Of a stretch of 64,000 nt of DNA, positions 11,591 through 61,877 are shown piece by piece. The notes beneath the pieces are model-generated. The model did not search any database, was not told where the DNA came from, and saw only the letters and a program-made list of their open reading frames with translations. Both the position numbers and the translations under genes were made by a program. Position 1 is the first letter of the stretch, and every line of letters starts with the position of its first letter. Origin of the DNA: Parcubacteria group bacterium (GTDB lineage Bacteria; Patescibacteriota; Minisyncoccia; Moranbacterales; UBA2206); NCBI GenBank assembly GCA_041661275.1, contig JBAZUU010000001.1, forward strand, positions 35,493 to 99,492, in the 5' to 3' direction.

Positions 11591-11985
11591 GGGGATGAAC
11601 TGGTTTCGACAGATTGTACATTTAAAATATGCAAGCCGGGCCGAATACCCGTAAAAATATTCAAAATGTTATAAGTGCAAACTTACTAACGAAGGCAAAA
11701 ACTGTATTCGCGCAAGCGTTTACTTCAAATTTTGCTTACGCTACAGCCTAATTAATTTTAGACAGTAGCCATCGAACTGTCGAAGTCTCATAGACAGAAC
11801 TTGGTGTCAAACATGAGAATAGCGCGGATTGCATTTCCTTGGCAATATGCGTAAAATAAACATAGGGATAAGTTGAAGTAATTTTTTCTATTTTTATCTT
11901 TAACTGAAATTACCAAATAGGATAAGCTTGTAGATTATTTTGAATGAATAATTTTGGACGCGAGTTCGATTCTCGCCATCTCCAC
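11591..11985 (+). ncRNA. ssrA: tmRNA (SsrA)
   Basis: 5' GGGGATGAACTGGTTTCGAC. 3' GGACGCGAGTTCGATTCTCGCCATCTCCA is the tRNA-like T-arm/acceptor. Internal tag ORF is ...NFAYATA followed by TAA. Confidence 0.8.
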
Positions 11986-12000
11986 ATAGCGATGCCAATC

Positions 12001-15058: not shown

Positions 15059-15922
15059 CTATCTTTGCAATTTCTTTTTCTCCTGACTTTTCAGAAAATT
15101 TCCGCTAGTAATGACTTTTCTCCCGGTTTTTTGTTCCAAATCGATTCTTGCTTTTTTGGCAATTCTGCCACCTCTTTTGCCAGCAACTTTGTTTTCATCC
15201 ATACCTCTCGCTTCTGTTGTTTCGGCAATTTGTCTGGTAGAAAATTCGGCTAAGGCTGTAAAAATCAATTCCGCTTCACTCATATGATCACGCAGGTTTT
15301 GTGTTTTCAACCCTTTTAGGTTTTTATGCTCTTTTACCGTTAAGTCCGACCACTCTTGATGAATAATATTAGTAAGAATGGCAAATTCTTCTTTTTCTTT
15401 GATATCATTGGCGCTCCAATAGTCCGTCAGCTTGTTTCTTGTTTCTTGCCCCATCATTCTTCGCTGTATCCATTGTTGATTGCGCCCATGTTTTTTCCAA
15501 TTTTCCCGGGCGCGATTGAGCGACTTTTCCGGATCAGCTAATTCTTGAATTCTTTCATATCCAACTTTAGCTAACCACAATTTGATTGGCTCAGCCTTTT
15601 TTGACGGAACTGATTGAATAAGACGGAGGATGGTTTCCGGATTAGCCGCATCCGTAAGATACTTTTTACCATCAGCGGCTTCCAATTTCAGTTGGTTACA
15701 TTCCGTAACCGACTGATTTCCTTCCGTTTTCAAGCGATTTTTCAGCACTTTCCAATAATTTCTAGCTAATTGAAAATCCTTTTGATCAATCAGTACAGCA
15801 ATGATGTCGATTACAGAAAAATACCATACCTCCTCTTTTTCATTATAAAGACGTCGAATTTCAAAATTTTCAAAAATAGCTATTTCGTGGTTTATGTTTT
15901 TTTCCTTTGTTTTCTTTTTCAT
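15059..15922 (-). CDS. Bro-N / DNA-damage-inducible protein D (DinD)-like protein
   Basis: N-terminal Bro-N-like region (FENFEIRRLYNEKEEVWYFSVIDI). Overall resembles DinD/antirepressor family proteins. Confidence 0.6.
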   Translation of the reverse strand: MKKKTKEKNINHEIAIFENFEIRRLYNEKEEVWYFSVIDIIAVLIDQKDFQLARNYWKVLKNRLKTEGNQSVTECNQLKLEAADGKKYLTDAANPETILRLIQSVPSKKAEPIKLWLAKVGYERIQELADPEKSLNRARENWKKHGRNQQWIQRRMMGQETRNKLTDYWSANDIKEKEEFAILTNIIHQEWSDLTVKEHKNLKGLKTQNLRDHMSEAELIFTALAEFSTRQIAETTEARGMDENKVAGKRGGRIAKKARIDLEQKTGRKVITSGNFLKSQEKKKLQR

Positions 15923-15923
15923 T

Positions 15924-16922
15924 TTATTTTTTCATCCCTTTCTTTAACAACTTTTTTACTTCCCGATCAAAATCAGAGATATAATTTTTGTCTTGGTTCA
16001 CGCGATATTTTTCATATTCTTCCAGTGCCTTCTTTTCAGCCTGTTTCGCACTTACCTTGCCGGATGAATGCAATAAATCCTTTTCCGAAATGGTCAAAAA
16101 TTCATCCAGTTTTCTGATCCAATCCTGCATTTTCATCAAACGGCCACTACTGGCTTGCAACTCTGCGAAATCGATATAGAGCGAAACAATGAGATTCAGC
16201 TGATTTATTTCCCGTTCAGTTAGATAGTTTTTTGCGACAACAATGTCATCGGTCGTAATATAATCACTTCTGAAACTCGTGAGTCCCATCAGGGGTTTCT
16301 TACTATCGGCACGCCGGGCGACGATTTCAGCCGCCGTATGTCCATGCACCGCGTAATGCATCTTGTTCTGCACCGTAGCAAAGAATTTTTGTGTCAACTC
16401 GGCATCAATTTTATAGTCGATGCTTGTCGCATAAATATCAGTAACTTTCTGATAAAACCTTCGCTCACTACTCCTGATGTCGCGCACTCGTTGCAATAGT
16501 TCTTGGAAATAGCGTGCTCGACCACCAACTTGTTTGAGTCGTTCGTCGTCCATTGTAAAACCCTTAATCAGATACTCTCTCAGCCTTTCTGTCGCCCATT
16601 TGCGAAATTGCATCCCCCTATCCGATCGTACACAATAGCCAACAGCCAGAATTACATCTAAATCGTAGTGTTTTGCGTTATAACTTTTGCCATCCGCGGC
16701 AGTTATTCGGAAATTCCTAATAACTGAATTTTCGTCCAATTCACCATCTCCAAATATATTTTTCAAATGTTCGTTGACCGTGGGAACGCTCACATCAAAA
16801 AGCTCAGCAATCAGTTTTTGCGTCAACCAAACATTTTCTCCTTCAATTCTAACATGAATTTTTTGCTCATCGCCAAGAGCTTGATAGATGGCAATTTGCG
16901 GTTTTTTATTCTCCTTTTTCAT
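15924..16922 (-). CDS. RhuM-family protein (virulence/anti-defense associated, HTH)
   Basis: VWLTQKLIAELFDVSVPTVNEHLKNIF...VGYCVRSDRGMQFRKWATERLREYLIKGFTMDDERLK matches RhuM family signature blocks. Confidence 0.75.
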   Translation of the reverse strand: MKKENKKPQIAIYQALGDEQKIHVRIEGENVWLTQKLIAELFDVSVPTVNEHLKNIFGDGELDENSVIRNFRITAADGKSYNAKHYDLDVILAVGYCVRSDRGMQFRKWATERLREYLIKGFTMDDERLKQVGGRARYFQELLQRVRDIRSSERRFYQKVTDIYATSIDYKIDAELTQKFFATVQNKMHYAVHGHTAAEIVARRADSKKPLMGLTSFRSDYITTDDIVVAKNYLTEREINQLNLIVSLYIDFAELQASSGRLMKMQDWIRKLDEFLTISEKDLLHSSGKVSAKQAEKKALEEYEKYRVNQDKNYISDFDREVKKLLKKGMKK

Positions 16923-16939
16923 ATTATTCTGCTAACGGT

Positions 16940-18037
16940 TTATAGTGATATAATATCACTATAACCCTCCCTGTCCAGCTCACTGCTGTGGATAACTTTT
17001 ATCTTCCTCGTAATTCCATGCCCGTTGCAGTGTTTCAAAATCCCCGAATACGACTGCAAGCTCTGGCCAAACGATTCTCTGGAAACTAATTTTTCTCGAA
17101 ACATCTTATGTTTCAGTGATAACTTATGGAATATCCGCCTCTTTGTTTTTGTCCTCAAAACTCTATGGTGCGGTAAAACTATATATCCCAGAAAATCAAT
17201 TCCTTGCCTTAGTTTTCTGATAATAATTTTATCAGGATGCAGTTTTAATTTTAATTCCTGTTCGAGAAACTTTCCTATTTCTGGAATTAATTTTTCTAAA
17301 TATTTTTTGTCTTCCAACAAAATAATGAAGTCATCGCAATACCGCAGATAGTATTTTTCTTTTAGCTTATGTTTAATAAACTGATCGAGTTCATTGAGAT
17401 AAATATTGGCAAATATCTGGCTGGTCACGTTGCCCAGCGGCAATCCTGAATCGAAACTTTTGATAATTGTTTCAATAAGCCAAATAGCATTTTTATCGTC
17501 AATCTTCTTTTGAATAAGTTCCAATAATATTTCCTGGTCAATCGAATCAAAAAACCTTTTGATATCGCATTTGAGCGCGTAAATATTTCTATTATTATTT
17601 CGACTGGCTTTCCGACAAAATTGCTCTAATCTTAGAACCGCCCGGTGCGTTCCTTTTTCTACTCGGCAGGAATATGAATCAAAAATGAAAATTTTGTCGA
17701 AAATGGGGTATAATATTCTGAAAATGGCGTGGTGCAGAACGCGATCTCGCACGCAAGCTTTATGAATTCGCCGCAATTTTGGATCGTGCACGTTAAATGC
17801 GGTATAATGGGAATGTTGGTAGGTTTTGTTTTTTAGCTCGCAGTGGAGTTGAAACAAGTTATCTTCCAGACTAAATTCAAGTTCCTGAACGTCTGGCTTA
17901 TTTTTTTTGCCATTTCGAAATTCCTGCCAGGCTAAAAACAAATTTTCCAAGCTAATAATTTTTTCAAATATATTATGACAAATTTCGTCCCCACTAAAGC
18001 CCCCCCCCAAGGAGTTTCCGGTATTAATGTTGTTCAT
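16940..18037 (-). CDS. diversity-generating retroelement (DGR) reverse transcriptase
   Basis: RT domain with the YCDD active site. Motif 4 reads LGNVTSQ, the DGR-specific [I/L/V]GxxxSQ form, in place of QGxxSP. Located 330 bp from a TR/VR pair. Confidence 0.85.
   Translation of the reverse strand: MNNINTGNSLGGGFSGDEICHNIFEKIISLENLFLAWQEFRNGKKNKPDVQELEFSLEDNLFQLHCELKNKTYQHSHYTAFNVHDPKLRRIHKACVRDRVLHHAIFRILYPIFDKIFIFDSYSCRVEKGTHRAVLRLEQFCRKASRNNNRNIYALKCDIKRFFDSIDQEILLELIQKKIDDKNAIWLIETIIKSFDSGLPLGNVTSQIFANIYLNELDQFIKHKLKEKYYLRYCDDFIILLEDKKYLEKLIPEIGKFLEQELKLKLHPDKIIIRKLRQGIDFLGYIVLPHHRVLRTKTKRRIFHKLSLKHKMFREKLVSRESFGQSLQSYSGILKHCNGHGITRKIKVIHSSELDREGYSDIISL
16941..16998 (-). promoter_or_regulatory. 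promoter/operator element A: 23-bp palindrome tatagtgatataatatcactata (extended -10 TGaTATAAT / TGaTATTAT), upstream TGGACA -35, and 13-mer AAGTTATCCACAG
   Basis: Palindrome at 16941-16963. On the minus strand it reads TGGACA-16-TGaTATTAT ahead of the rhuM start 16922. ctgtggataactt at 16986-16998 is the reverse complement of AAGTTATCCACAG. Confidence 0.55.
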
Positions 18038-25456: not shown

Positions 25457-25705
25457 TCAAGCTCGGTTTTTTATTATCTTCATCTTTTCATATCTCGTCA
25501 AATTCTTTATCCGATATTCTTCTTTTAGGGCCTTTGATCTGGTCTTGATTTTTTTGGAGTATACTAACTTCACCGGCCTTCGGCCTCGGGTATATTTCGC
25601 GCCCAACTTTCCGCTGTTATGCCCGTTTATTCTTTTCTTGAGATCGACCGCGATTCCGGTATAAAAAGTTTTGTCTGAACATTGAAGAATATACAGATGA
25701 TACAT
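25457..25705 (-). CDS. GIY-YIG nuclease family protein (YhbQ/UPF0213-like)
   Basis: YILQCSDKTFYTGIAVDLKKRINGHNSG is the GIY-YIG signature. Length 82 aa. Confidence 0.75.
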   Translation of the reverse strand: MYHLYILQCSDKTFYTGIAVDLKKRINGHNSGKLGAKYTRGRRPVKLVYSKKIKTRSKALKEEYRIKNLTRYEKMKIIKNRA

Positions 25706-27446: not shown

Positions 27447-27559
27447 AATTTTTTGTTACAATAGTTAATCTGTTTCAATTATATCAGTCCCTAAAAACAA
27501 AAACCAGCCCACGAGGACTGGAAAACTCGCCAGTTTTTTTAATTTCTGTAATATCTAAT

Positions 27560-27787
27560 CTATAAATGACTTTCCGCTTCAGCGAAGGCCTTGGAAAAAT
27601 CAGCAAAATGATCTTTGAACAACATTATCCGATTAGTTACCCTTTCTCCGTCTTTTTTCTTATACAGTTCAGCGATTGTCAGATAGTGACTGCCGTTAGA
27701 CGCTTTTTTGACATCGAAGAAATAATTTTTGCCTCCCGCTCGAACCATCTGGGAGTGCACTTTCTCCGGCATGTTTTGTCCCTCCAT
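27560..27787 (-). CDS. PUR-alpha-like ssDNA/RNA-binding protein (DUF3276 family)
   Basis: MVRAGGKNYFFDVKKASNGSHYLTIAE...MLFKDHFADFSKAF matches the DUF3276 pattern. Confidence 0.6.
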   Translation of the reverse strand: MEGQNMPEKVHSQMVRAGGKNYFFDVKKASNGSHYLTIAELYKKKDGERVTNRIMLFKDHFADFSKAFAEAESHL

Positions 27788-27907
27788 AATTTTTTGGTAC
27801 GCGTCTTTTAAATTTTTCCATTAGTCTTATGTTAGCTGCAGCTAGATAAAACTTTTGGCGTGACGCATACATATTAAGTATTAGCGCGAGGGTCTTTTTC
27901 CACTCGC

Positions 27908-27963
27908 AGTGATATTCTATCACTGATGATATACCACTGCAAGTACTACCCTGTGGATAACTT
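27908..27963 (-). promoter_or_regulatory. promoter/operator element C: palindrome agtgata-ttc-tatcact with extended -10 (TGaTAGAAT), -35 TTGCAG, box AAGTTATCCACAG
   Basis: Minus strand reads AAGTTATCCACAG-8 nt-TTGCAG-17-TGaTAGAAT, upstream of the gene at 27787. Confidence 0.55.
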
Positions 27964-28013
27964 TACACCATAGCCTACTTGCCCGCCCTTGGAGAGACCC
28001 ATTTTCCTTCTCT

Positions 28014-28328
28014 CTATTTTGAAATGAACAAGATAGCCAGTGCTATGATCAAAAAAAGAAGAAGGCAGCCTAATGTGAGGATGAATAGTTTGACTGCCTC
28101 TTTCTTCTGGCCGTCAAAATAAAGCGTGGCTGGTTTTCCCAAGATCAGAGCGCCCGAAACAGCGGCAGAGAGAACTAAAAGAAGGAGGAGCGTTATTGGA
28201 GCGAAAATAGTATCAGGTTTTTGGCTAAGATATTTTTCAGCGTTTCTAAAGAAAGTTGCGACAAGAATTATATAAACCACTTCGCCCAAAGCGCATAAGA
28301 AAGCAATTTTGAATAATTTTTTTGTCAT
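28014..28328 (-). CDS. small membrane protein (3 TM), hypothetical
   Basis: 104 aa, hydrophobic. Confidence 0.4.
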   Translation of the reverse strand: MTKKLFKIAFLCALGEVVYIILVATFFRNAEKYLSQKPDTIFAPITLLLLLVLSAAVSGALILGKPATLYFDGQKKEAVKLFILTLGCLLLFLIIALAILFISK

Positions 28329-28501
28329 AGTGTTTTTTTGTAAGTTTACCCCGTTAAATTGGTTTTTTATTTAATGGGGTAATTAATTACGTAATTAAAT
28401 GTACCTGACTCCCTCATTCCCCTTATTCTTTATTAGATTAGTGGGATATAAAGTTTGTCTAAAAGTTTGTCTAATGGTTTGTCTAAAATATCGGATTTTA
28501 G

Positions 28502-30160
28502 CTAAACTTTCTGCCACTTGGGATATCTACTTGTGCCCTTGTTTATTATCGTTTTATCCTTTTTAGACATAGCATAAACAATGTTTCTTATTTTATTTTT
28601 CTTTTGTTGTTCATCTAAAATTTTTGGAAGTATATCTAAAATTAATTTTTCAATATCATTTTTAGATGCTTCTTTATACTTCTCTAGATATTCAAGTATC
28701 ATTTTTTTATAATGATCGTCCTTAAATCCTCTCATTTTAATGTATTCGCTCTTTTCTCCAGTTTTAACCGCAACTTTCGAAGAAATGTATATGTTGGGAC
28801 TTCGACCCTCTATGAGATCCCTCCTTCTAAGTTCCTTCGCTTCATATGTGTTTAATTCTTTTCTTTTCTGAACTTTATCCAGAGCGATGATTATTTTCAA
28901 ACCCAGATCGGGAATTTGCGCAAGTTTTTTGGCATATTGTACATCTAGCACTTTTCCTATAATAGTAAGCTTGACTTTCCCGCCAGATAAATCATATTCT
29001 GGAAGAGGGAAAAATTTATTTTTTTGCGATATAAACATCTTTTTTATTCCACTTCCTATTGTGTCAATCATATTTACATTGACCATAGCATCGACAAGAA
29101 ACTTGTTCCTATAATACTCAGACGGTGAATCTGCCTCTATGACATTCTCGATTGTCCCTGGAATAAAAGCACCGAGATTTGAAAATATCAAACTGTCATC
29201 TTCATTTTCAACAACGTTTATTTTTCCTCCAAACTCATAGTCTTGATGAGCAATGCAATTATTAATCGCTTCTCTGATAGTAGTTGGATCATACCTATCA
29301 ATTTCCTCTGGAAAAAGCGTCCTATAAGATATATATCTATAACGCAAATTTCTAATTTTTTTATAAACATTTTCGACAGCTAAAATAAATGGACAACTAA
29401 AATGTTCGTAATCTTTTTCAATGCCATCCTTATCCTTTAAAATCCAAGAGATTTTTGCACAAGCCGGATTAATAAAATGCTCCGCTTCTGTTTTTCCTAA
29501 TAGCACAATGGCTGTTCGTGTAATCTTGCCATTAATCGTAACTCTTGCTTTGTTTAGAAATATCTCGTTGCTCCAACTTTCAATTTCTTTCTTATCAATC
29601 TTGGGATTCTTACGCCCAAATCCTTCTCTCGCTTTCTGTATCGCCCCGCGGTCTAAATCTTCAATTGTAGCACCGTCACAAATTTTAGCACTCCAGTCTT
29701 CCAGCTTTGATTGCAATCGGATTCTCTCAATTTTTTCTATGCTTAACGGAACAAGATCTTCATTTTCTCGAGCATAATAGAATCCTTGCCAGGCAATCGG
29801 AATCCCTTTTGGAGCAGGAGGGATTTCGAATAGAACAACTCTCTTCCCTACCCTTCTCACTTCATAAACATCGATGAAAGATATCCCTCCAGTGGTTTGT
29901 TTAGCTATCTCCGATTTTAAACTGTTTAATTTTACAGGATCTTTTCTATAATTTGTTCCAACAATATTTTTGTTATTTTTTATACCCAAAACCAACCAGG
30001 CTGATTTTATCTTTTTTAAATTTGCTTCGTTGCTAAGTGCGCTAAAATATTTGCCTAGTTTTCTGAAATCAAAATCCGTCTTAGCTTCTTTCCATTCGAC
30101 TACTTCATTTTCAGCCGGAAGTGAAAGAATATAATCAAGTTGTTCTTCTATTTTTTTCAT
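28502..30160 (-). CDS. AlbA_2 (Schlafen-like divergent AAA) DNA-binding domain protein with C-terminal HATPase-like region
   Basis: N-terminal VVEWKEAKTDF...LSNEANLKKIKSAWLVLGIKNNKNIVGT matches the PF04326 pattern. Length 552 aa. Confidence 0.6.
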   Translation of the reverse strand: MKKIEEQLDYILSLPAENEVVEWKEAKTDFDFRKLGKYFSALSNEANLKKIKSAWLVLGIKNNKNIVGTNYRKDPVKLNSLKSEIAKQTTGGISFIDVYEVRRVGKRVVLFEIPPAPKGIPIAWQGFYYARENEDLVPLSIEKIERIRLQSKLEDWSAKICDGATIEDLDRGAIQKAREGFGRKNPKIDKKEIESWSNEIFLNKARVTINGKITRTAIVLLGKTEAEHFINPACAKISWILKDKDGIEKDYEHFSCPFILAVENVYKKIRNLRYRYISYRTLFPEEIDRYDPTTIREAINNCIAHQDYEFGGKINVVENEDDSLIFSNLGAFIPGTIENVIEADSPSEYYRNKFLVDAMVNVNMIDTIGSGIKKMFISQKNKFFPLPEYDLSGGKVKLTIIGKVLDVQYAKKLAQIPDLGLKIIIALDKVQKRKELNTYEAKELRRRDLIEGRSPNIYISSKVAVKTGEKSEYIKMRGFKDDHYKKMILEYLEKYKEASKNDIEKLILDILPKILDEQQKKNKIRNIVYAMSKKDKTIINKGTSRYPKWQKV

Positions 30161-30170
30161 ATACCTACCT

Positions 30171-30602
30171 TTAATTATCTCGATATTTTTTTATAATTTC
30201 CAAACAATCCTCGTAAGCCTCGGCTTTTCCGCCGATAAATTTATTGAGTCCGTATTCTTCGATTTTTTCACTTTCCCACAATTCCTCTTTCCATTCTTTT
30301 CTATAATTTTTTGCTAATGTTGCAATATGATTTTCCAGCGATTTTCCTGTAATTTTTTCAATAAAACCTTTCGACATCAATCGAACTGTGTCCGGATATA
30401 ATTGTTGCAAATTTTCCCAAAGTTCAAATGTTTGATATTTGTCATCTCCACTAATCATTTCCCACTCTTCCGGCTCGATTTCCACAAAATCATCATCTTC
30501 TTCCGTATATTCTTGGCACATAACCAGAAATGGAAAATAAAAATCTTTATACTCATCTAAATATTTCAATATTTTTATTGCCAGCTCTCTTGATATTTTC
30601 AT
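30171..30602 (-). CDS. hypothetical acidic protein
   Basis: 143-aa ORF packed tightly between the AlbA_2 and DpnI-like genes. Confidence 0.4.
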   Translation of the reverse strand: MKISRELAIKILKYLDEYKDFYFPFLVMCQEYTEEDDDFVEIEPEEWEMISGDDKYQTFELWENLQQLYPDTVRLMSKGFIEKITGKSLENHIATLAKNYRKEWKEELWESEKIEEYGLNKFIGGKAEAYEDCLEIIKKYRDN

Positions 30603-30662
30603 AAAATTGGTCAGGATTTAATTTTTATTCCTGATCAATTTTTGATCGGTTTCGTAATTGTG

Positions 30663-31433
30663 TCAAATCGTCAATTTATACCTCCCTTTTCCAATAAATT
30701 CCAAGTATCCGTTGTCCCTCAAGACTTGCAATTGCTGACGAAGTTTATCCTTTATAAAGTTATTTTGGGGATGATTCTTTTTCAGCTCTTTTTCAAAAAA
30801 ATACACCTCATCGAGAGAAAACTCTTTTTTGCCAAGTTTATCGATACAATTCATTGTATCTAAAATCCACCCCTTGGCTGATATTTCTTTCTCATCTCTT
30901 ATAAATAATGTTTTTCGCCAATTTTCCAAAACATTTTTCTTCGTCTCCGCTTTCCTATCTTTGACATAAAATATTTTTCCCGTCTGTGGTATACCAACAA
31001 GTGAAATATTGCACCCTATCCATCCAGCTCGTCTGGCATTTTCCGAAAGTGGTCTTCTTTTTTCAATAATGTCCGGAATAAAAAAATGTTTAGGAATAAC
31101 CAAAAAATTTAGAATCTCGAGATTTTTCAAATCATAATTAAGCAAAAAGAAGTTTGGATTATTGCTACACTGCAATCTTTCAATCATCGTCCGATAAGCA
31201 CCATCAACAATTTTCGTTCCGATTGAATTCTTTTTACTTTTTAGTTCATACTCTTCGGCACAACTCGGACAAAAAAAATCAGCAACTGGCCGATTATTTT
31301 CATAGCTGCTAACATTAGTTCCGCAATTCGGACAATAAATTTCGTTATCAACCCAGCTTTCAGTTAAAACTCTAATTTTTTGCGAGTTACTATTATAGTT
31401 TTCAGCAATTTTAACATCTAGAGCTATTTGCAT
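30663..31433 (-). CDS. DpnI-like methylation-dependent (Type IIM) restriction endonuclease
   Basis: Long collinear similarity to DpnI as I recall it: YNSNSQKIRVLTESWV..YCPNCG..ENNRPVADFFCPSC.EEYELKSKK..DGAYRTM..NNPNFFLL..ARRAGWIGCNI..LNCIDK..IKDKLRQQLQVLRD. Confidence 0.7.
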   Translation of the reverse strand: MQIALDVKIAENYNSNSQKIRVLTESWVDNEIYCPNCGTNVSSYENNRPVADFFCPSCAEEYELKSKKNSIGTKIVDGAYRTMIERLQCSNNPNFFLLNYDLKNLEILNFLVIPKHFFIPDIIEKRRPLSENARRAGWIGCNISLVGIPQTGKIFYVKDRKAETKKNVLENWRKTLFIRDEKEISAKGWILDTMNCIDKLGKKEFSLDEVYFFEKELKKNHPQNNFIKDKLRQQLQVLRDNGYLEFIGKGRYKLTI

Positions 31434-31546
31434 ATTTTAACAAAATTATCCTTTTTGAAATAAGGTTTGTTTTTTATCTCAGACAATATCTTTCTCTGCT
31501 GTGCAACTGTAACCATAGTTTGTAAATTATAACATACGTCCTCCAT

Positions 31547-31603
31547 AGTGATATGGCAACACTACTACAATATCACTGCAATACGCTCGCCTGTGGATAA
31601 CTT
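31547..31603 (-). promoter_or_regulatory. promoter/operator element D: agtgatat-N15-atatcact inverted repeat plus box AAGTTATCCACAG upstream of the DpnI-like gene
   Basis: ctgtggataactt at 31591-31603. Inverted repeat arms at 31547-31554 and 31570-31577. Confidence 0.5.
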
Positions 31604-43514: not shown

Positions 43515-43570
43515 AAAGCATTTATCCACAGTTTCCGATATTTGCCGGTTGACAGAAATCGGCTGCTCTG
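43515..43570 (+). promoter_or_regulatory. TTATCCACAG box plus consensus promoter TTGACA-17-TATACT
   Basis: Box at 43515-43524, -35 at 43542-43547, -10 at 43565-43570. Confidence 0.5.
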
Positions 43571-45675: not shown

Positions 45676-45750
45676 TCCGGCGTAGCTCAATGGTAGAGCA
45701 GTTGACTGTTAATCAATTGGTTGTAGGTTCGAGTCCTACCGCCGGAGCCA
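45676..45750 (+). tRNA. tRNA-Asn (anticodon GTT), CCA encoded
   Basis: Acceptor stem tccggcg/cgccgga. D-arm agctcaatggtagagc. Anticodon loop ctGTTaa. T-arm gtagg-ttcgagt-cctac. Confidence 0.85.
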
Positions 45751-47319
45751 CATGGGATTTGCGTCGCCGAAAGCGGCGCTTTTTCTTTTTCTGGAGCGGT
45801 TTTTAAGAGGTTCGAACGCGCTCAAATTTTCCTCTTCCGGATTTGAGACGAGAATCATCGGCAGAAGCGCGGAATCCGTGTTAATATCGACTTTTTTGTC
45901 TTTTAGGAGGAGGTTCGAACCTAAGGCGGATAAAATTATTTTTCGGGCATGCTGACCTCTCTCGGTGAAGGATTCCTGAGCGTCACTGGCAAATTTGAGA
46001 ACATTATCGGCCGTCTCCAGCCAGCTATCGACTCGGCTGTCCGTATCGTTCAAAAGTTCGTGCAGTTTCGCTTTTTCCTGATTGGTCTTTGATTTTTTGC
46101 GCGTAAATTCTTCTTCGCTGATTTCTCCGGCCGCGCGCATATCGATAAGCGCGTCGAGTTTCTGGACGCAGGCTTCGTAGTTTTTTTGTTGGTTGGCGAG
46201 AATGGCGTTTCGATCGTCAGCCTCTCGTCCGTTTTCATTTTGCAGCCACTTCATCGCCCAGTCATGAAATTCCTGCGGCGGTCGCACTTGAGACAAGGTG
46301 CTTTTAACTTGTCTTTCCAGTTCTTTCACTTCGATGCATTTCTGACTGCACGGACCTTTTCTTTTGGTGCAATGATAGTAAGTGTAATTATGAATATTCC
46401 CGTTCTTATTTTTCTTAACTTTATTTTCCGCCGTCACCATAGCTCCGCATTCGCCGCAACGGATCATGCCGGTATAAGCGAAAGTATGCGTTTCCGGTTT
46501 CGGTTTACTGCCTCGGCCGAGAAGCGCCTGGACGCGATCATATTCGTCGCGGGTGATCATCGGTTCGTGTTTGCCCTTGTGCCAATTCCCACTGCCTTGC
46601 GGCCATTCAAACCAGCCGTAATAAAATGGATTATATAGCACCCGATAGAATCCGCTTCGCGCCAGCTTTTTCAATCCCCATTTCTCGACAGCAATTTCAT
46701 GAACTCTCGGCGCCGTATAGGTGCCACTTAAAATCATGTCGAACATCTTTCGGACAAGCGGAAACATTTTCGAGTCTTTGCGAATTGTTTTAAAGCCTTT
46801 CTGTTTGTCAGGCGTATTCATATATCCGATCGGCGCCGGGCCCGGATGCCAACCGAGCTCCACCTTGCGTCGGAGCCCTCGTTTCACATCGATGCCTTTG
46901 TTATCATTTTCCAGCTTGGCCTGGCTGCAAAGAAGATTGAGCAGAAATTTATCGTTGGGCGTATTTTTGAAAGGCTGGCCGGGTGTTTTTATTTCCTGCA
47001 GTTTATTTTGATCCATTAAATAAACCAGATAACCAGTGTCAACAGAATTTCTGGAAAGCCGGTTGGGATGCCAAGCTAGAATTCCGTTGGCTTCGCCTTT
47101 CTCAATCCGTTTTATCATTTCATTGAAAATCTCCCGACCCGGCGCTTTGGCCGAATATGATTCTTCAAGCAGACTCACGATTTGGAGTTTTTCACGTCTG
47201 GCCAGCGCTTCCAGTTCACCCTTTTGCGAATCGATTGAAAGCACCTGGCGGTCTTCTTGCTCCGATGACTTTCGAGCGTAGAGAAAATATTTAAGTTTTG
47301 ATTGCACTTCCTGGTTCAT
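45736..47319 (-). CDS. large serine recombinase (resolvase catalytic domain, recombinase domain, Zn ribbon); 3' end overlaps the tRNA-Asn 3' end
   Basis: N-terminal YARKSSEQEDRQVLSIDSQ holds the catalytic serine. Length 527 aa. The stop codon lies inside the tRNA T-arm/acceptor. Confidence 0.85.
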   Translation of the reverse strand: MNQEVQSKLKYFLYARKSSEQEDRQVLSIDSQKGELEALARREKLQIVSLLEESYSAKAPGREIFNEMIKRIEKGEANGILAWHPNRLSRNSVDTGYLVYLMDQNKLQEIKTPGQPFKNTPNDKFLLNLLCSQAKLENDNKGIDVKRGLRRKVELGWHPGPAPIGYMNTPDKQKGFKTIRKDSKMFPLVRKMFDMILSGTYTAPRVHEIAVEKWGLKKLARSGFYRVLYNPFYYGWFEWPQGSGNWHKGKHEPMITRDEYDRVQALLGRGSKPKPETHTFAYTGMIRCGECGAMVTAENKVKKNKNGNIHNYTYYHCTKRKGPCSQKCIEVKELERQVKSTLSQVRPPQEFHDWAMKWLQNENGREADDRNAILANQQKNYEACVQKLDALIDMRAAGEISEEEFTRKKSKTNQEKAKLHELLNDTDSRVDSWLETADNVLKFASDAQESFTERGQHARKIILSALGSNLLLKDKKVDINTDSALLPMILVSNPEEENLSAFEPLKNRSRKRKSAAFGDANPMWLRR

Positions 47320-58384: not shown

Positions 58385-60208
58385 CTACTTTTGCACAATA
58401 TTCTCCAGCCTTTCTTTTCCCATTATATGCAACTCCGATATAGCGCGAGTAAGCGCCACATAAAGAAGATCTTTGTTAATTCTCTTTTTCTCTTCAGCTA
58501 AATCAACATGCCCCTTATCTTGATAATCAGCAAACATTTCTTTGCTGACGCCCACAATAATAACAACGTCAAACTCCACTCCCTGCGCTTCATTCATCGT
58601 CATTGCATGCACTTTGTTGTTATCGCTAAAAGTACTTTTGAACTGAGTCAAATAATTCTCTTCTTTGGCTAATATTCCGACACTGGAAAAATTATTTGTC
58701 GCAATGATTTTTTTGATTTGTTCGATTTCTTCATCCTTGCTTTGAAAAATATATTCTTCCACCGCTTTTCCTTCCTTTAGCTGATCGAGTATTTCAATGT
58801 CATATCCCAATTTTTTGATATATCGCAAAATGTTTTTTGTGTTCCGATAAACTTTTTGCAGCGTTACCTTTCGTTCCTCTTCCATTTTTTCCTCGATATC
58901 TTCCCAATGGCGGATCGTTCCCAGCTTCACTTGCTGAGCCATATCTCCGACATAAACCGTTGATTGGCTTTTCTCGCTGATACAAGATTTTATAAGCCGC
59001 AATTGATCCGGCAAATAGTTTTGGAATTCGTCGATTACCGCTAAGGAATATTCCAAGGGTACCGCTTCCTTCTTCTTTTTTATGGATCCGTTCCTTTGCT
59101 GGATATATCGATCTCTAATCACACTTAAACCCTCGCTGCTCGCGTAAGATATTTTCAGAAGTAAGGTTAAGTCAATTCTGTCATACGCCCTCTCTTCCTT
59201 TTGACGCTGAAACAAAGTTTTTTTCTCGTTGTTCAAATACTTTCCATAAACTTTTTCAAGTATTGAGTGCGAATCTGATTTTGCATATGTCTGCTTGGAT
59301 AAATTATTCAAAGCTTTCAATTTGTAAAACTCATATAAGTCCTTCTCGTACTCACTATCTCCGTATCTTTCCGTAAAATTACCATCCATGCCAAGAATCT
59401 CAAACGCCCATTCGGAAAAAGTAACGATTTTGACATCATCGATACCGAGCTCCGGCAGAAGATGGGAGAAATACTCCTTGGTGCCGTTATCCTGAACGAA
59501 GACTATGATGGATTTGCTGGTGTAGATGTCGGCCAAGTCCGGAGATTGAACAAGATAGGCCACCCGATGAAGAGCCAGGGTGGTCTTGCCGCTTCCAGCC
59601 GGACCGGAGATCAAAAACGATCCTTTATGATAAGCGCGAATTACCTGATCCTGCGCCTTTTCCATTTGAGCCACAATTTCTGGAAGAATGAAGCCTGTTT
59701 TTTTGGTGGAAAAATATTCTTCATATATCAGTTCCCGCGGCTCGGATATCGTTTCCGAAGACAGAAATTTTATTTTTCTATCAACAATCATAAATTGATC
59801 TTTCCTGAGCAGTTTTACTTTCTGTATCATTCCGTCCGGACGCTTATAGCTCACGTCGCCCGGCTTTTCAAACCGAATCACTGAAGCCGGAGTTATCCAG
59901 GAATAAATATCCCTGTCGCTGAATCCAAACTTGCCAAAGTAGATTCTGTTTTCTTTTTCTTCCCCGCTAAACACAATATCGCAGCGCACAAAATAGGGCG
60001 AGCCTTTTAAATGCTTCAGCTCATTGATTCTTTTTTCATTGTTGGCGATGATCGTACTCTCTACCATCTGGTCGGCGTAGGAAAGCGTGCTGAACCTCTC
60101 CTTGCTTAATTTGAGTGACTTCTCCACTTTAGCAAGACCATTTTTCAGGCTCATACAAACAGACGCCAAATGTTCCCTGGCGAGGGATAGAATTTTTTCT
60201 TTGTCCAT
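58385..60208 (-). CDS. UvrD/Rep-family SF1 DNA helicase (HelD-like)
   Basis: Walker A GPAGSGKTTLALHRVAYL, VYVGDMAQQV, ALTRAISEL. Confidence 0.7.
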   Translation of the reverse strand: MDKEKILSLAREHLASVCMSLKNGLAKVEKSLKLSKERFSTLSYADQMVESTIIANNEKRINELKHLKGSPYFVRCDIVFSGEEKENRIYFGKFGFSDRDIYSWITPASVIRFEKPGDVSYKRPDGMIQKVKLLRKDQFMIVDRKIKFLSSETISEPRELIYEEYFSTKKTGFILPEIVAQMEKAQDQVIRAYHKGSFLISGPAGSGKTTLALHRVAYLVQSPDLADIYTSKSIIVFVQDNGTKEYFSHLLPELGIDDVKIVTFSEWAFEILGMDGNFTERYGDSEYEKDLYEFYKLKALNNLSKQTYAKSDSHSILEKVYGKYLNNEKKTLFQRQKEERAYDRIDLTLLLKISYASSEGLSVIRDRYIQQRNGSIKKKKEAVPLEYSLAVIDEFQNYLPDQLRLIKSCISEKSQSTVYVGDMAQQVKLGTIRHWEDIEEKMEEERKVTLQKVYRNTKNILRYIKKLGYDIEILDQLKEGKAVEEYIFQSKDEEIEQIKKIIATNNFSSVGILAKEENYLTQFKSTFSDNNKVHAMTMNEAQGVEFDVVIIVGVSKEMFADYQDKGHVDLAEEKKRINKDLLYVALTRAISELHIMGKERLENIVQK

Positions 60209-60509
60209 AGTTAATAAAAAAACGACTTATAGTATAAGCTGGAAATTGCGTTTTTGGATACAATTTGACCCTGCTTATGTAAGTCGGTTTTCGCTAGAAG
60301 TAGGTAATATTGGCTGGTTTCAAGTGTTTTTGTATTTTCAGTATATCACATATTGGCGTTTTGGCAAATTAACGGCTGCTTATTAGTCTTCTAAAGATAA
60401 GAGTTGACAATAATCTGACAGCCTACACTTAGCTCAGCTCTTGCGTTAATGTCGATTATACTATATAATTTAACTGGAAAGGGACTTAAACACCCCTTTC
60501 AGACAATAT

Positions 60510-61127
60510 ATGAACAAAATACCAACAAAAGGTGAATATTTAGAGGTCTTATTAAGATCTCCCAAAACCGTCTTTTCTACAAAAGATGCGGCTTTATTAT
60601 GGAACGAGACCGATAATGCCGTGGTTACTGACCGATTAAAAAAATATGTTAAAGCTGGAAAGTTAGTTCGACCATATCGCGGTTTGTATGCCAAAGATAA
60701 AAATTATAATCGCTTTGAAATTGCAACGCGAATCTATACTCCTTCTTACATCAGTTTCGAAACTGTTTTGACGAGAGCTGGAATCAACTTTCAATTCTAT
60801 AGCAATATTTTTGTGGCTTCATACGTAACTCGAGATATTCAAGCTGGCGATCAGTCGATTTCATTTGTCCGAATGAAAGACTATGTTTTAAGTAACACGG
60901 TCGGCATTGAACATTCGGACGGAATTGCCATGGCTACCAAAGAGCGCGCGTTCTTGGACAGAATTTATGTGAGCAAAGATTATCATTTTGATAATTTAAA
61001 CGCCTTGGATTGGGACAAGGTGTTTGAGATTTTGCCGATCTATAACAATAAGCGAATGGAAAAGAAGGTTGATGAGTATTTCGATCACTACAAAAGCGAT
61101 CAACCAATTAAACCAGAAAAAATATGA
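60510..61127 (+). CDS. AbiEi-like antitoxin/transcriptional regulator (type IV TA, abortive infection)
   Basis: N-terminal wHTH-like region. 4-nt overlap with the downstream AbiEii gene. Confidence 0.6.
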   Translation: MNKIPTKGEYLEVLLRSPKTVFSTKDAALLWNETDNAVVTDRLKKYVKAGKLVRPYRGLYAKDKNYNRFEIATRIYTPSYISFETVLTRAGINFQFYSNIFVASYVTRDIQAGDQSISFVRMKDYVLSNTVGIEHSDGIAMATKERAFLDRIYVSKDYHFDNLNALDWDKVFEILPIYNNKRMEKKVDEYFDHYKSDQPIKPEKI

Positions 61128-61819
61128 AATTAGATTATTCAAAACACAAAAATATCTTACTGCAGATTTTAAAGGACATTTATTCCGATACGTCTATTGC
61201 TCCCCATTTAGGATTTAAGGGTGGAACGGCCGCTTTATTGTTCTATGGATTAACTCGTGATTCGGTTGATTTGGATTTGGACTTGCTGAACGAAGAAAAA
61301 GAAATAGAAGTATTTGAAAAAATACAAAAAATTATCGCCAATTATGGGACGGTCGTCGATTCGAGAATTAAGAAATTCAATTTGCTTAACGTTCTTTCGT
61401 ATGCGCCCGGTGCGCAAAAAATAAAAGTCGAGGTCAACCGAAGACAGTTTGGCTCGAAATATGATCTTAAAACTTTGCTTGGCATATCAATGCTGGTCAT
61501 GATTGAGGAAGATATGTTTGCCCATAAGCTGATGGCCATGCATGAACGGATCGGCAAAACAAGTCGGGATGTTTATGATGTTTGGTTTTTCTTGGAAAAC
61601 CGCTGGCCCATTAACAAAGAAATTGTCGAACAACGTTCCGGTAAAACTTTCAAAAAAGTGCTGAAAATGACGGCTGAACAGTTGGAAAAGCTGGATAATA
61701 AACACGTATTGGATGGACTGGGTGATTTCCTGACAGATCCACAAAAAGATTGGGCTCGCGCCAAACTGAAAAGTGAAACGATATTTTTACTAAAAGCTCG
61801 AGCGGAGAGTGAAAAATAA
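61124..61819 (+). CDS. AbiEii/AbiGii-family nucleotidyltransferase toxin (DUF1814)
   Basis: LGFKGGTAALLFYGLTRDSVDLDLDL is the family signature. Confidence 0.75.
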   Translation: MKLDYSKHKNILLQILKDIYSDTSIAPHLGFKGGTAALLFYGLTRDSVDLDLDLLNEEKEIEVFEKIQKIIANYGTVVDSRIKKFNLLNVLSYAPGAQKIKVEVNRRQFGSKYDLKTLLGISMLVMIEEDMFAHKLMAMHERIGKTSRDVYDVWFFLENRWPINKEIVEQRSGKTFKKVLKMTAEQLEKLDNKHVLDGLGDFLTDPQKDWARAKLKSETIFLLKARAESEK

Positions 61820-61877
61820 TAAAGGCAGATGCGTTTGGAATTAAACTCGATGATTTTAATGAAATAAAAATACTGAT

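Follow-up and report, generated by a model that had tools for sequence, protein, structure and literature searches.

A DpnI-family cassette with a candidate GATC-containing promoter beside separate gene modules in a Parcubacteria group bacterium

Results

Gene content and limits of the acquired operon

The region lies in a 64-kb stretch of DNA (the window) from a MAG of a Parcubacteria group bacterium, and the analysis was computational throughout. Its five ORFs, all on the minus strand and at the positions already annotated, are listed here with their regulatory features.

27504–27521, minus strand: intrinsic-terminator-like hairpin and T-run, directly 3' of the DUF3276 gene
27560–27787, minus strand: DUF3276 (PUR-like) protein, 75 aa (Pfam DUF3276, 5.5e-12)
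27909–27963, minus strand: DUF3276 promoter, with AAGTTATCCACAG (27951–27963), TTGCAG, a 17-nt spacer and TAGAAT
28014–28328, minus strand: 104-aa predicted membrane protein, a native flank outside the acquired operon
28502–30160, minus strand: COG2865-type protein (AlbA_2), 552 aa, assigned from Pfam matches, gene junction and homologues
30171–30602, minus strand: p143, 143 aa, conserved and acidic, occupying the dpnD slot
30633–30666, minus strand: candidate internal p143 promoter with two GATC sites, from sequence and consensus scan
30663–31433, minus strand: DpnI-family type IIM (Gm6ATC-dependent) restriction endonuclease, 256 aa, from Pfam, PADLOC and PDB matches
31531–31603, minus strand: DpnI operon promoter region, with upstream element, −35-like hexamer, repeat and −10 candidates

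The initial annotation had joined the five genes in a single defence islet, a view contradicted by GC3 and by the corresponding locus of a sister genome (L094). GC3 is 0.28 for AlbA_2, 0.28 for p143 and 0.31 for DpnI, against 0.40–0.48 in the flanks (0.40 for the membrane gene, close to its native neighbours, and 0.47 for the DUF3276 gene). The L094 order is DpnI, p143, an NYN gene with a 198-aa gene in place of AlbA_2, and then a homologue of the membrane protein, 65% identical and in the same relative position. On these two grounds we delimit a 3.3-kb low-GC operon, DpnI → p143 → AlbA_2 (~31.60 → 28.50 kb, minus strand), which appears to have been horizontally acquired, the membrane and DUF3276 genes being native flanks. 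The region is a set of modules side by side rather than a single system. Apart from the L094 membrane homologue, 80 + 80 other DpnI/p143 loci contained no homologue of AlbA_2, DUF3276 or the membrane gene, and comparison of other DpnI/p143 and AlbA_2 loci agreed with the earlier premise that these are not housekeeping neighbours kept in synteny. The PADLOC run that had been proposed recognized a defence system, single-gene mREase_II, but called no multi-gene system. The membrane protein matched no Pfam, NCBIfam, PADLOC or PHROG family.

The DUF3276 gene, with a promoter and terminator of its own and native GC3, is an independent monocistronic unit of native composition; its product was rightly called PUR-like from the DUF3276 match, PurA (0.0012) falling under its cut-off. 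The TAGAAT of its promoter lies within the inverted repeat GTGATAgAATATCAC (27909–27923). As annotated, two genes carry the AAGTTATCCACAG element, which is promoter-associated: there are exactly three copies in the window, all on the minus strand (16986, 27951 and 31591), two of which precede the start codons of DUF3276 and DpnI by ~160 nt. The copy at 31591–31603 overlaps the stop codon of the S51 peptidase gene, and the DpnI operon promoter further comprises a −35-like TTGCAG, a split inverted repeat AGTGATAT...ATATCACT (31548–31576) and the −10 candidates TTGCCA-17-TATGTT and TGtTATAAT; the same layout is found 5' of DpnI in L094 and recurs in other Patescibacteria loci. The 9-nt core of AAGTTATCCACAG has 5 copies against 0.52 expected, a number reached in 0 of 100 shuffles. 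We rejected AAGTTATCCACAG as a defence-specific mark, it being found generally upstream in Patescibacteria loci, and regard it from sequence as a putative upstream promoter element general to Patescibacteria, its core resembling a DnaA box.

The DpnI enzyme

The earlier DpnI-like call is borne out by matches to Pfam DpnI (1.5e-80) and DpnI_C (1.3e-31), to PADLOC mREase_II (1.3e-115) and, at full length (residues 1–253, 2.9e-85), to the solved Streptococcus pneumoniae DpnI 4esj. The PD-(D/E)XK site, whose absence would have told against the call, is intact on alignment: E25, D52, E63 and K65 (E25/D53/E64/K66 of R.DpnI) are invariant, as are the zinc residues C34/C37/C55/C58. The methyl-pocket residues are D229, K230, R232, Q233 and Q236 (counterparts E228, K229, R231, Q232 and Q235), site assignment following the residue roles described for R.DpnI (PMC3424567). 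The protein is thus a genuine member of the DpnI family, and its catalytic, zinc and methyl-reading residues are all intact. It has no secretion signal.

The reported absence of an adjacent methyltransferase was also confirmed, in that a regex search found no DPPY/NPPY-type DNA methyltransferase motif in ORFs of ≥90 aa in the 64-kb window; in two other loci a D12-class adenine methyltransferase lies two genes downstream of DpnI-p143. DpnI works alone on fully methylated GATC (PMC12707154). The enzyme would cut incoming DNA bearing Gm6ATC; a partner methyltransferase is unnecessary, since a host that leaves its GATC unmethylated would be protected. Patescibacteria very commonly carry DpnI (of 476 relatives, the best 80 are mostly CPR), and the same enzyme occurs at 58–68% identity across unrelated free-living phyla and archaea.

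p143 and the dpnD slot

The initial annotation had listed p143 as an acidic unknown; the acidity (pI 4.55, N-domain 4.05) and the lack of a known family (no match in Pfam, NCBIfam, PADLOC or PHROG) stand, but its status as a bystander does not, for p143 is a conserved occupant of the dpnD slot and has a candidate promoter containing a GATC pair. It comprises an N-terminal alpha/beta core (residues 1–63) and a C-terminal helical module (about 85–141), for which no fold match was found. Homology to DpnD/PcfM was ruled out, there being no PF14207 match at E ≤ 10 and an hhalign probability below 1%. In 62 of 74 informative p143 loci (84%), and in independent contexts, the gene immediately 5' is DpnI, at a distance of −18 to +65 nt; in the remaining 16% the upstream gene is GmrSD, a TdeIII R-M pair, HsdS or a DUF2075 helicase. 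Sequence conservation of p143 appears equal to that of the enzyme or higher (82/74/70% against 70/76/54% identity in loci L002/L004/L006), and no relatives were found on phages or plasmids. We therefore propose p143 as a probable conserved partner gene of DpnI in the classical dpnD position, from an undescribed family that seems to travel almost exclusively with restriction genes. The slot itself holds at least nine recurrent small-ORF families, mutually unrelated and including true DpnD/PcfM; dpnD has been described as 'of unknown function' (PMC4471560).

The candidate GATC-pair promoter of p143

The −35 hexamer TTGACA (30666–30661) overlaps the DpnI stop codon TGA (30665–30663). It is followed by a 17-nt spacer ending in the first GATC (30647–30644), a −10-like AAAAAT (30643–30638) and the second GATC (30636–30633). 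p143 would thus have its own sigma70-like promoter, a candidate called by consensus within a phylum of uncharacterized promoters. Of 72 distinct regions upstream of p143, about 70 have GATC-N3/7-GATC around the −10, and the exact 13-nt distance from −35 to first GATC recurs in 58 of the 72, with variants in most others. The −35 and GATC blocks are 94–100% conserved, the spacer and flanks 45–61%, and the pair is retained in seven of eight loci without DpnI. In 1.46 Mb of sequence the pattern occurs 96 times, always within DpnI/p143 cassettes, the background rate of GATC pairs being 0.135 per kb. GATC is absent from the present DpnI coding sequence and is depleted 3–5-fold inside DpnI and p143 coding regions, with observed/expected ratios of 0.20–0.23 (DpnI), 0.35 (p143) and 0.64 (whole loci) against 0.69–1.04 for other 4-nt palindromes. 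The promoter is absent from the tightly coupled slot families (the 63-aa form, C1–C5, C7, C8 and true DpnD).

The AlbA_2 gene

The Schlafen-like AlbA_2 ATPase of the initial annotation was upheld: the 552-aa protein contains a Schlafen-like AlbA_2 domain (17–137; SLFN_AlbA_2, 6.6e-13), a GHKL-type HATPase_c_4 domain (318–400; 6.1e-10), both exceeding Pfam cut-offs, and a C-terminal region. Its start codon lies 10 nt past the p143 stop and is preceded by the ribosome-binding site AGGTAGG. There are >7,900 homologues, with about 60% identity in Bacteroidota, and E17, E19, E22, E45, E297, N301, D366, G369 and G371 are invariant. Three homologues elsewhere neighbour AbiEii, type I hsdS-hsdM and a small GTPase, with no DpnI nearby. 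Bacterial AlbA_2 domains are enriched beside defence systems, and their acidic site is required for toxicity (PMC12680541). The AlbA_2-GHKL gene seems to be an independent, widely transferred defence-island gene occupying a variable slot behind p143, and the GC3 and operon that it shares with DpnI-p143 may reflect co-acquisition or local cooperation. Judging from its family, the product would probably serve as a second line of defence, as a Schlafen-like nuclease dependent on ATP.

Discussion

The reading that we consider probable is that of separate modules, in which a methyl-directed DpnI cassette has p143 wired to the GATC methylation state, and AlbA_2 and the flanking genes are independent, the membrane and DUF3276 genes being native and having separate transcription signals. 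The GATC pair suggests that the cassette may sense DNA methylation through the p143 promoter. p143 would be transcribed both by read-through and from its own promoter, which would report the GATC-methylation state of resident DNA; possible triggers would be a phage Dam acting on the chromosome or entry of the cassette into a Dam+ cell. The role of p143 would then be to modulate restriction, most probably through restraint or redirection of the nuclease. A GATC-specific role fits poorly with the loci in which p143 follows GmrSD, TdeIII or HsdS, because these partners read no m6A, unless they are recent replacements. The inverted repeat formed by the conserved GATC pair could alternatively serve a protein as operator, whether a host factor, p143 or DpnI itself, or could form a hairpin in read-through RNA.

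It is also conceivable, though we think it unlikely, that p143 and the other slot ORFs are immunity or antitoxin-like nuclease inhibitors (DNA mimics, for example) and that the conserved GATC palindrome acts as operator or RNA structure independently of methylation. Pairs of colicin DNase and immunity genes have a similar arrangement. p143 is small, acidic and directly 3' of nuclease genes, which it sometimes overlaps, the slot families are mostly acidic, and in two loci p143 precedes a zeta toxin, the usual position of an antitoxin. Evidence against inhibition is that one conserved enzyme has at least nine unrelated partner families scattered over the DpnI tree, that p143 also stands 3' of nucleases of unrelated folds, and that two slot families (C2 and C8) are not acidic; moreover, a generic operator would hardly account for the strict retention of GATC, the enzyme's own target, in an otherwise GATC-depleted cassette.

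Functional independence of p143 from DpnI, as a selfish or hitch-hiking gene or a recombination hot spot anchor 3' of restriction genes, seems improbable. The 16% of p143 loci without DpnI would fit, as would two loci (L127 and L128) with identical flanks and the same p143 and different upstream genes, the highly variable downstream cargo, and the weak correlation of DpnI clades with partner type. Against it stand the short gaps to a DpnI gene directly upstream in 84% of loci, the fusion of the −35 to the DpnI stop codon, conservation of p143 at least matching the enzyme's, the GATC depletion common to both genes and the lack of p143 relatives found on phages or plasmids.

We give still less credit to a third view, that DpnI mainly serves nucleotide salvage in nucleotide-auxotrophic episymbionts by digesting Dam-methylated DNA imported from the host or the environment, its neighbours being unrelated. 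CPR bacteria rely on scavenged nucleotides, and the frequency of DpnI in Patescibacteria is in keeping with such a use; it is countered by the setting of DpnI-p143 loci among defence genes (TIR, Mrr, AbiE, SocA/Panacea, KAP, NYN, GmrSD), by the enzyme's presence in free-living phyla and archaea and by its lack of a secretion signal.

That the five genes form one system, with DpnI cooperating with the AlbA_2 ATPase and the membrane and PUR-like proteins, is largely refuted and retains almost no credence: the genes are adjacent on one strand, two have the 13-mer in common, and low GC3 and tight spacing are common to DpnI, p143 and AlbA_2, but AlbA_2 and DUF3276 homologues occur in 0 of 160 other DpnI/p143 loci, the three AlbA_2 homologues have no DpnI nearby, the sister genome substitutes NYN and another gene for AlbA_2, both flanking genes are native in GC3 and the DUF3276 gene has a separate promoter and terminator, the 13-mer appears to be a general promoter element and PADLOC recognizes mREase_II alone.

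Among known systems, the S. pneumoniae DpnI cassette (dpnC, encoding R.DpnI, and dpnD, encoding a small protein) has an enzyme of the same family, about 51% identical over its full length with all catalytic, zinc and methyl-pocket residues, and likewise a small same-strand ORF directly downstream and no methyltransferase. It differs in that p143 is not a DpnD/PcfM homologue and has a different, unmatched fold, true DpnD loci do not have the GATC-pair promoter of p143, and here the host is a Parcubacteria MAG in which the cassette heads a variable defence-gene slot. The Neisseria dam-replacing gene (drg, an NmeBII-type DpnI homologue) also encodes a DpnI-family enzyme (45% identity) in a genome without Dam at that locus, but drg is followed by dam and methylase remnants rather than a small partner ORF. 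In the DpnII cassette, the accessory gene dpnA has a competence-induced internal promoter (PMC3812788), resembling p143 as a Dpn-cassette accessory gene with its own condition-responsive promoter; dpnA, however, encodes an ssDNA methyltransferase of known role whereas p143 has no recognizable activity, and the signal is competence for dpnA and would be methylation for p143.

The AlbA_2 protein resembles COG2865/AlbA_2 (Schlafen-like) proteins, Avs9, SAMD9/9L and SLFN nucleases in carrying an AlbA_2 domain whose acidic cluster is conserved, and proteins of this class are enriched near defence systems; it differs in having a GHKL-type HATPase_c_4 domain and a C-terminal region in place of STAND NTPase, SIR2 or TPR modules. 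It is absent as a system from PADLOC 2.0 and, to our knowledge, no protein of AlbA_2 + HATPase_c_4 architecture has a demonstrated mechanism.

Dam-methylation-sensitive promoters, such as IS10 transposase pIN and those of dnaA, trpR and the pap/agn43 type, have GATC in or beside sigma70-type −10/−35 hexamers, and their activity can depend on adenine methylation. The p143 GATC sites are similarly inside or adjacent to such hexamers. Here, in contrast, a Dam-negative host is expected, in which the sites would normally be unmethylated, and the gene for an enzyme that cuts methylated GATC has the element fused to its 3' end; methylation dependence of the p143 promoter is a prediction.

Composition of the islet

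All five ORFs that the initial annotation had grouped as one defence islet are present on the minus strand, in the following order:

30663-31433, minus strand: DpnI-like endonuclease
30171-30602, minus strand: acidic 143-aa protein, here termed p143
28502-30160, minus strand: 552-aa AlbA_2/HATPase protein
28014-28328, minus strand: 104-aa membrane protein
27560-27787, minus strand: PUR-like protein with a DUF3276 domain

By each sequence-level defining feature tested, the endonuclease is a member of the DpnI family (PF06044 plus PF17726). The Pfam DpnI (1.5e-80) and DpnI_C (1.3e-31) matches span the entire ORF, which also matches the PADLOC mREase_II model (1.3e-115) and the solved Streptococcus pneumoniae enzyme R.DpnI (4esj; 2.9e-85, residues 1-253). 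Aligned with R.DpnI and with three homologues from Patescibacteria, the window protein has intact, invariant PD-(D/E)XK residues E25, D52, E63 and K65 (E25, D53, E64 and K66 of R.DpnI), and the Zn-site cysteines C34, C37, C55 and C58 are invariant too. In R.DpnI, D53, E64 and K66 are essential by mutagenesis, the four cysteines are Zn ligands, and E228, K229, R231, Q232 and Q235 make up the lining of both m6A pockets in the winged helix (PMC3424567). The counterparts of the pocket residues in the window enzyme are D229, K230, R232, Q233 and Q236, four identical and one a conservative E to D change, and Gm6ATC specificity has likely been kept. A total of 476 relatives was found, and those at 58-76% identity occur in Patescibacteria, Omnitrophota, Dehalococcoidia, Campylobacterota, Bathyarchaeia and Altiarchaeales, a spread across bacterial and archaeal groups which indicates that the gene is highly mobile.

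DpnI alone suffices for restriction and its target is fully methylated GATC; Dam-type methylation is frequent among bacteria and phages (PMC12707154). No methyltransferase gene adjoins the window DpnI gene, and a pattern scan of the window ORFs of 90 aa or more found no xPPY motif. Window-wide GATC depletion was considered as a clue to host methylation and was uninformative (observed/expected ratio, O/E, 0.87). Among the other loci fetched for their DpnI, p143 or AlbA_2 homologues (numbered with the prefix L), two carry a gene for a D12-class N6-adenine DNA methyltransferase (PF02086, 1e-19; L095 5919-6761 and L098 5844-6737), two genes downstream of DpnI-p143 and behind an unannotated gene of 455-492 aa. 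If this enzyme methylates GATC, it would conflict with DpnI.

The AlbA_2/HATPase protein has both domains above the Pfam cut-offs (SLFN_AlbA_2, PF04326, residues 17-137, 49.7 bits versus 25.3; HATPase_c_4, PF13749, residues 318-400, 39.4 bits versus 26) and, by these two domains, is a member of the COG2865-type architecture. Its family is large, with more than 7,900 matches and about 60% identity even in Bacteroidota, and the database names of its relatives vary (RNA-binding protein, transcriptional regulator, 'RecG'); the RecG-like similarity of COG2865 has been noted (PMC7641849). Across 35 homologues the acidic residues E17, E19, E22 and E45 are invariant (E84 nearly so), as are the GHKL-like residues E297, N301, D366, G369 and G371; a search of the PDB gave no sequence match. 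[quoted passage not shown] Homologues of the window protein lie beside AbiEii (L088), directly after type I hsdS-hsdM (L091, L092) and beside a small GTPase (L093). We infer that the protein is probably a stand-alone ATP-dependent Schlafen-like nuclease.

The reading of the five genes as one system was rejected on co-occurrence, on composition and on the sister locus L094. No AlbA_2 homologue was present in 160 DpnI or p143 loci. GC3 is low in the AlbA_2 (0.28), p143 (0.28) and DpnI (0.31) genes, which mark out the apparently acquired segment, against 0.40 in the membrane protein gene, 0.47 in DUF3276, 0.48 in an exonuclease gene, 0.34 in an S51 peptidase gene and 0.44 in a PEMT gene nearby. 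In L094, where p143 is 88% identical, DpnI and p143 are followed in turn by an NYN-domain gene, a 198-aa gene, a homologue (65% identity) of the 104-aa membrane protein and a DEAD/RecQ-like helicase; DpnI-p143 and the membrane protein gene thus make up a stable framework around a variable slot, which AlbA_2 fills in the window and which elsewhere holds Mrr, TIR, a KAP NTPase, or the 455-492-aa gene followed by the D12 methyltransferase. The gene behind p143 is co-oriented in 46 of the 50 loci with a clear ORF and lies within 60 nt in 17, although this is weak evidence in genomes where genes commonly share one direction over long stretches. In the window, the AlbA_2 ATG lies 10 nt past the p143 stop codon and is preceded by an AGGTAGG site. 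PADLOC (PADLOC-DB 2.0) found the single-gene mREase_II alone and no multi-gene system; AlbA_2 gave weak partial pAgo-associated matches (1.9e-5) and the other islet genes nothing.

The PUR-like designation stands through DUF3276 (PF11680, 46.4 bits versus a cut-off of 23.1), PurA itself scoring 18.7, below its cut-off of 25. This gene has signals of its own:

27909-27963, minus strand: predicted promoter of the DUF3276 gene
27504-27521, minus strand: terminator-like hairpin of the DUF3276 gene

The comparisons show the two left-hand genes (membrane protein and DUF3276) to be native and the AlbA_2 gene to be modular. DpnI and AlbA_2 are ordinary members of known families, and the islet is a mosaic of them and native neighbours. 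At the edge of the low-GC segment, TAGACAAAC occurs three times at 12-13-nt intervals (28452-28485, minus strand) in the AT-rich spacer (GC 0.29) between the AlbA_2 stop codon and the membrane protein gene. A search for att-like repeats around the segment returned just a 14-nt promoter element and one AT-rich 14-mer, which are unconvincing, and synteny through the S51 peptidase flank could not be followed, no relatives being found in metagenomes.

p143 and the dpnD slot

The 143-aa unknown is acidic as described (pI 4.55), and neither it nor the membrane protein matched any Pfam, NCBIfam, PADLOC or PHROG family. Weak matches of p143-family members to DUF7334 (6 of 36) and SelB-wing_3 (5 of 36) were inconsistent and were taken as noise. 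There are 768 homologues, the best 120 of them at 69-88% identity (Nomurabacteria, Moranbacteria, Paceibacterota), and the family is small: of 1.84 billion representatives, it accounts for 139 clusters at 50% identity. p143 lies directly downstream of DpnI in three genomic contexts that are unrelated and in which every other neighbour differs.

In the window the two genes are co-oriented and 60 nt apart, as in the dpnD arrangement; in the pneumococcal DpnI cassette this position is held by dpnD, a gene 'of unknown function' (PMC4471560). A small same-strand ORF lies 0-65 nt behind almost every DpnI gene in 80 loci from named genomes (80 of 476 DpnI loci were inspected, and 80 of 217 p143 loci, all of them from MAGs or metagenomes). 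We know of no role assigned since the 1980s to dpnD, the second gene of the DpnI cassette. The slot ORFs of the 80 loci fall into at least nine recurrent families. The p143 family fills the slot in 26 loci, in a long form (141-157 aa) in nine and in 17 as a short form of 63 aa that matches residues 1-62 only; the others are C1 (seven loci), C2 (five), C3 (five), C4 (four) and four families with two loci each. Two C3 members tested match Pfam DpnD-PcfM (PF14207; L065 2e-14, L087 9e-13). In profile-profile comparison the long and short p143 forms are the sole related pair (94.5%).

It might be supposed that p143 is itself a DpnD/PcfM homologue. PF14207 gave no match to p143 at E <= 10, and hhalign against the DpnD cluster returned a probability below 1%; p143 takes the place of DpnD and is, by these comparisons, not a member of its family. 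Nor do the slot proteins share a general character as acidic DNA mimics, C2 and the C8 slot family being neutral or basic. The idea that p143 is an anti-restriction gene of phages or plasmids was rejected, as searches of IMG/VR viral contigs, PHROGs and PLSDB plasmids gave no relatives. For a tight co-evolution between DpnI and its type of partner the signal is weak: the nearest DpnI neighbour has the same partner family in 18 of 55 cases versus 5.7 at random, and DpnI identity is 0.67 within partner families versus 0.65 between them. DpnI sequences thus barely cluster by partner family, which indicates that the slot occupant has often been exchanged.

Among 74 informative metagenomic p143 loci, a DpnI ORF lies directly upstream in 62. 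The upstream neighbours identified in the remaining 12 include the following:

L127 and L130: GmrSD type IV enzyme
L120: N6_N4 methylase and TdeIII endonuclease
L163: HsdS
L168: DUF2075/SLFN-g3 helicase

L127/L130 and L128/L129 share the same flanks (PIF1-like helicase, ABC-F ATPase) and the same p143, and differ upstream of p143 in having GmrSD or three unannotated genes (244, 202 and 78 aa), respectively; in L128 the N-terminus of p143 is altered. In L151 503-1727 and L168 3956-5382, p143 has a Zeta_toxin-family kinase gene behind it (4e-38 and 2e-32), with a gap of 50 nt in L151, so that p143 sits where an antitoxin usually precedes its toxin. Each half of p143 appears to occur as a free-standing protein. 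One family member of 296 aa, P0269, has a full p143 and a C-terminal part that is C4-like by eye (...FIFVTKDWFTEDGSWNEIDNLQVLW...); if the resemblance is real, this protein would physically join two slot families that are otherwise unrelated.

A predicted GATC-marked promoter

The 60-nt spacer between DpnI and p143 in the window holds the sole two GATC sites of the 1.26-kb module, within a predicted sigma70-type promoter of p143 (ORF starts and promoters are predictions throughout):

30666-30661, minus strand: predicted -35, TTGACA, which shares bases with the DpnI stop codon (TGA, 30665-30663)
30647-30644, minus strand: first GATC, the final four bases of the 17-nt spacer
30643-30638, minus strand: -10-like AAAAAT, followed by T
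30636-30633, minus strand: second GATC

All of 51 distinct DpnI-p143 spacers contain GATC, 48 of them at least twice. The arrangement TTGAC[AT], exactly 13 nt, GATC, 3 or 7 nt, GATC is found in 58 of 72 distinct p143 upstream regions, and the other 14 are mostly variants, with a -35 of TTGATC or TTGACG or with the first GATC alone. The motif, TTGAC[AT]-N13-GATC-(AAnGATC or AAnAATTGATC), is conserved, at invariant spacing, in about 70 of the 72; the sole region without the element before p143 is that of L128, which has the same promoter 1.5 kb upstream, ahead of inserted genes. Two types can be distinguished. In one, the short type, the -10 and the second GATC overlap (AAnGATC) and 4-8 nt are left to the ATG, so that an essentially leaderless transcript is predicted; in the other, the long type present in the window, the second GATC comes after the -10, with a leader of 29-31 nt.

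The loci share descent and the counts are not independent, but the motif has been kept where spacers and flanks diverged. In pairwise comparison the -35 averages 0.93-1.0 identity and the GATC block 0.94-0.96, against 0.52-0.61 for the 13-nt spacer and 0.45-0.66 for the stretch immediately before the -35. Pairs of the form GATC-N2-8-GATC have a background density of 0.135 per kb. In 1.46 Mb of locus sequence (both strands) the full pattern was counted 96 times, 89 of them directly before p143; the other seven begin at a DpnI stop codon or fall inside a cassette of this kind, before other small ORFs (L030, of the C6 zinc-ribbon family, L046, L071, L043, L061 and L128/129). The element is retained in seven of eight p143 loci without DpnI. 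The tightly coupled slot families, among them the 63-aa form and true DpnD, do not have it.

GATC depletion in the cassette

GATC is scarce in the coding sequences of these cassettes, with an O/E of 0.20 (51 CDSs) or 0.23 (80 CDSs) in DpnI and 0.35 in p143, against 0.64 for whole loci; within DpnI the O/E of CATG, GTAC, TCGA, AGCT, AATT and TGCA is 0.69-1.04. The DpnI CDSs of L008-L087 hold 45 GATC sites where 193 are expected, a depletion of about four- to fivefold that is seen with any partner family. This suggests selection against the enzyme's own target inside its gene. Taken together, the coding depletion and the promoter sites show a cassette that purges its own target except at two fixed promoter positions.

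The 13-mer and other elements in the window

The initial annotation had noted a promoter element before two islet genes. The element does precede DpnI and DUF3276, but it is not a mark of defence and recurs across Patescibacteria. The 13-mer AAGTTATCCACAG, with a core TTATCCACA identical to the Escherichia coli DnaA-box consensus, occurs exactly three times in the window:

16986-16998, minus strand: 13-mer
27951-27963, minus strand: 13-mer
31591-31603, minus strand: 13-mer

Each copy is followed after 9-10 nt by a -35-like hexamer (TTGCAG or TGGACA), and 16-17 nt past the hexamer is a -10 embedded in AGTGATAT or ATATCACT, the left arm of this 'palindrome' being an extended -10 (TGnTATAAT). A fourth site (43522-43530, plus strand) is ahead of TTGACA-17-TATACT. 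By position, the 13-mer is the putative upstream element serving DpnI, DUF3276 and RhuM in the window; the copy for RhuM lies inside the 3' end of a reverse transcriptase gene, about 65 nt upstream of RhuM. As a 12-mer it was found in nine other Patescibacteria loci, including the orthologous site upstream of DpnI in L094, with about 11 occurrences against about 0.1 expected (L094 69-80 and 3540; L095 2907; L131 1942 and 4205; L022 2574; L020, L008, L026 and L081). This recurrence makes it a lineage-wide upstream promoter element that is not specific to defence, and a defence-specific mark was rejected as the sequence lies about 10 nt upstream of ordinary-looking -35 hexamers in many Patescibacteria loci. 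A role as origin DnaA boxes was also rejected, the cumulative GC skew having no turning point near 27-32 kb and ordinary-looking promoters following the copies. The recurrent Patescibacteria layout is AGTTATCCACA followed by G or A, about 10 nt, a -35-like hexamer, about 17 nt and the extended -10 TGnTATAAT, often inside the inverted repeat GTGATAT..ATATCAC.

The window also carries a tmRNA and one tRNA, and its genes at 13-60 kb are nearly all on the minus strand. RhuM belongs to a second accessory cluster, and RhuM/Fic and Bro-N genes are near DpnI in L006 and L004 too. Small stand-alone GIY-YIG proteins (about 82 aa) lie a few kb from DpnI or p143 in at least 13 fetched loci (L030, L032, L035, L098, L101, L136 and others), some of them 60-65% identical to the window copy. 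The large serine recombinase listed below slightly overlaps tRNA-Asn, and its position abutting the tRNA suggests an integrated element to its right.

11591-11987, plus strand: tmRNA (Rfam, 153 bits), tag peptide ANLLTKAKTVFAQAFTSNFAYATA
15059-18037, minus strand: second accessory cluster, with Bro-N (15059-15922), RhuM (15924-16922) and reverse transcriptase RVT_1 (16940-18037)
25457-25705, minus strand: GIY-YIG small protein
45676-45750, plus strand: tRNA-Asn
45736-47319, minus strand: serine recombinase (Resolvase, Recombinase and Zn_ribbon_recom domains)
58385-60208: UvrD-like helicase
61124-61819: AbiEii toxin, preceded by an overlapping 205-aa ORF
within 58385-63266: also an unannotated 462-aa protein

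A possible role for the slot

What is new here is the partner-gene slot and its GATC-marked promoter; no description of the GATC-pair promoter or of the GATC purge in DpnI cassettes was found in the searchable literature. The commonest slot family in uncultivated bacteria, p143, accompanies other restriction enzymes too, and before p143 and a few other slot genes the predicted promoter holds the recognition sequence of the enzyme at fixed positions.

The main reading proposed here is that the p143 promoter would be in one state in the normal, unmethylated host, and that GATC methylation on resident DNA would change its activity, although the GATC pair may instead serve as a protein operator. 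The p143 protein, which is acidic and lacks any catalytic motif, would in turn adjust restriction, the likeliest way being restraint of the nuclease, and the AlbA_2 gene would be co-regulated with p143 in this genome. A bolder and, on balance, rather doubtful hypothesis is that DpnI cassettes contain a built-in epigenetic alarm, in which the GATC-pair promoter responds to GATC methylation of the resident chromosome, triggered for example by a Dam-encoding phage that escapes restriction or by entry of the cassette into a Dam+ cell, and switches an exchangeable small protein (p143, zinc-ribbon proteins or others). In many loci the same promoter may also switch a co-oriented second-line gene, AlbA_2 here and NYN, TIR, Mrr or KAP elsewhere. 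Were this alarm real, a restriction enzyme and a transcriptional sensor would read the same modified base, and the dpnD slot would finally have a function. The slot, its promoter and the GATC purge turn a vague accessory gene into a concrete hypothesis, namely methylation-responsive control of a restriction partner, and the promoter together with the GATC self-avoidance makes this directly testable for a gene that has long been unexplained.

Comparison with known systems

Neisseria drg, the other classical DpnI homologue, is without a p143-like partner, unlike the window DpnI. A GATC in promoter hexamers can make transcription methylation-dependent, as in IS10 pIN, dnaA and others. In sequence logic only, the p143 promoter resembles such Dam-sensitive promoters, with GATC lying within or abutting the -10 or -35 of a sigma70-type promoter.
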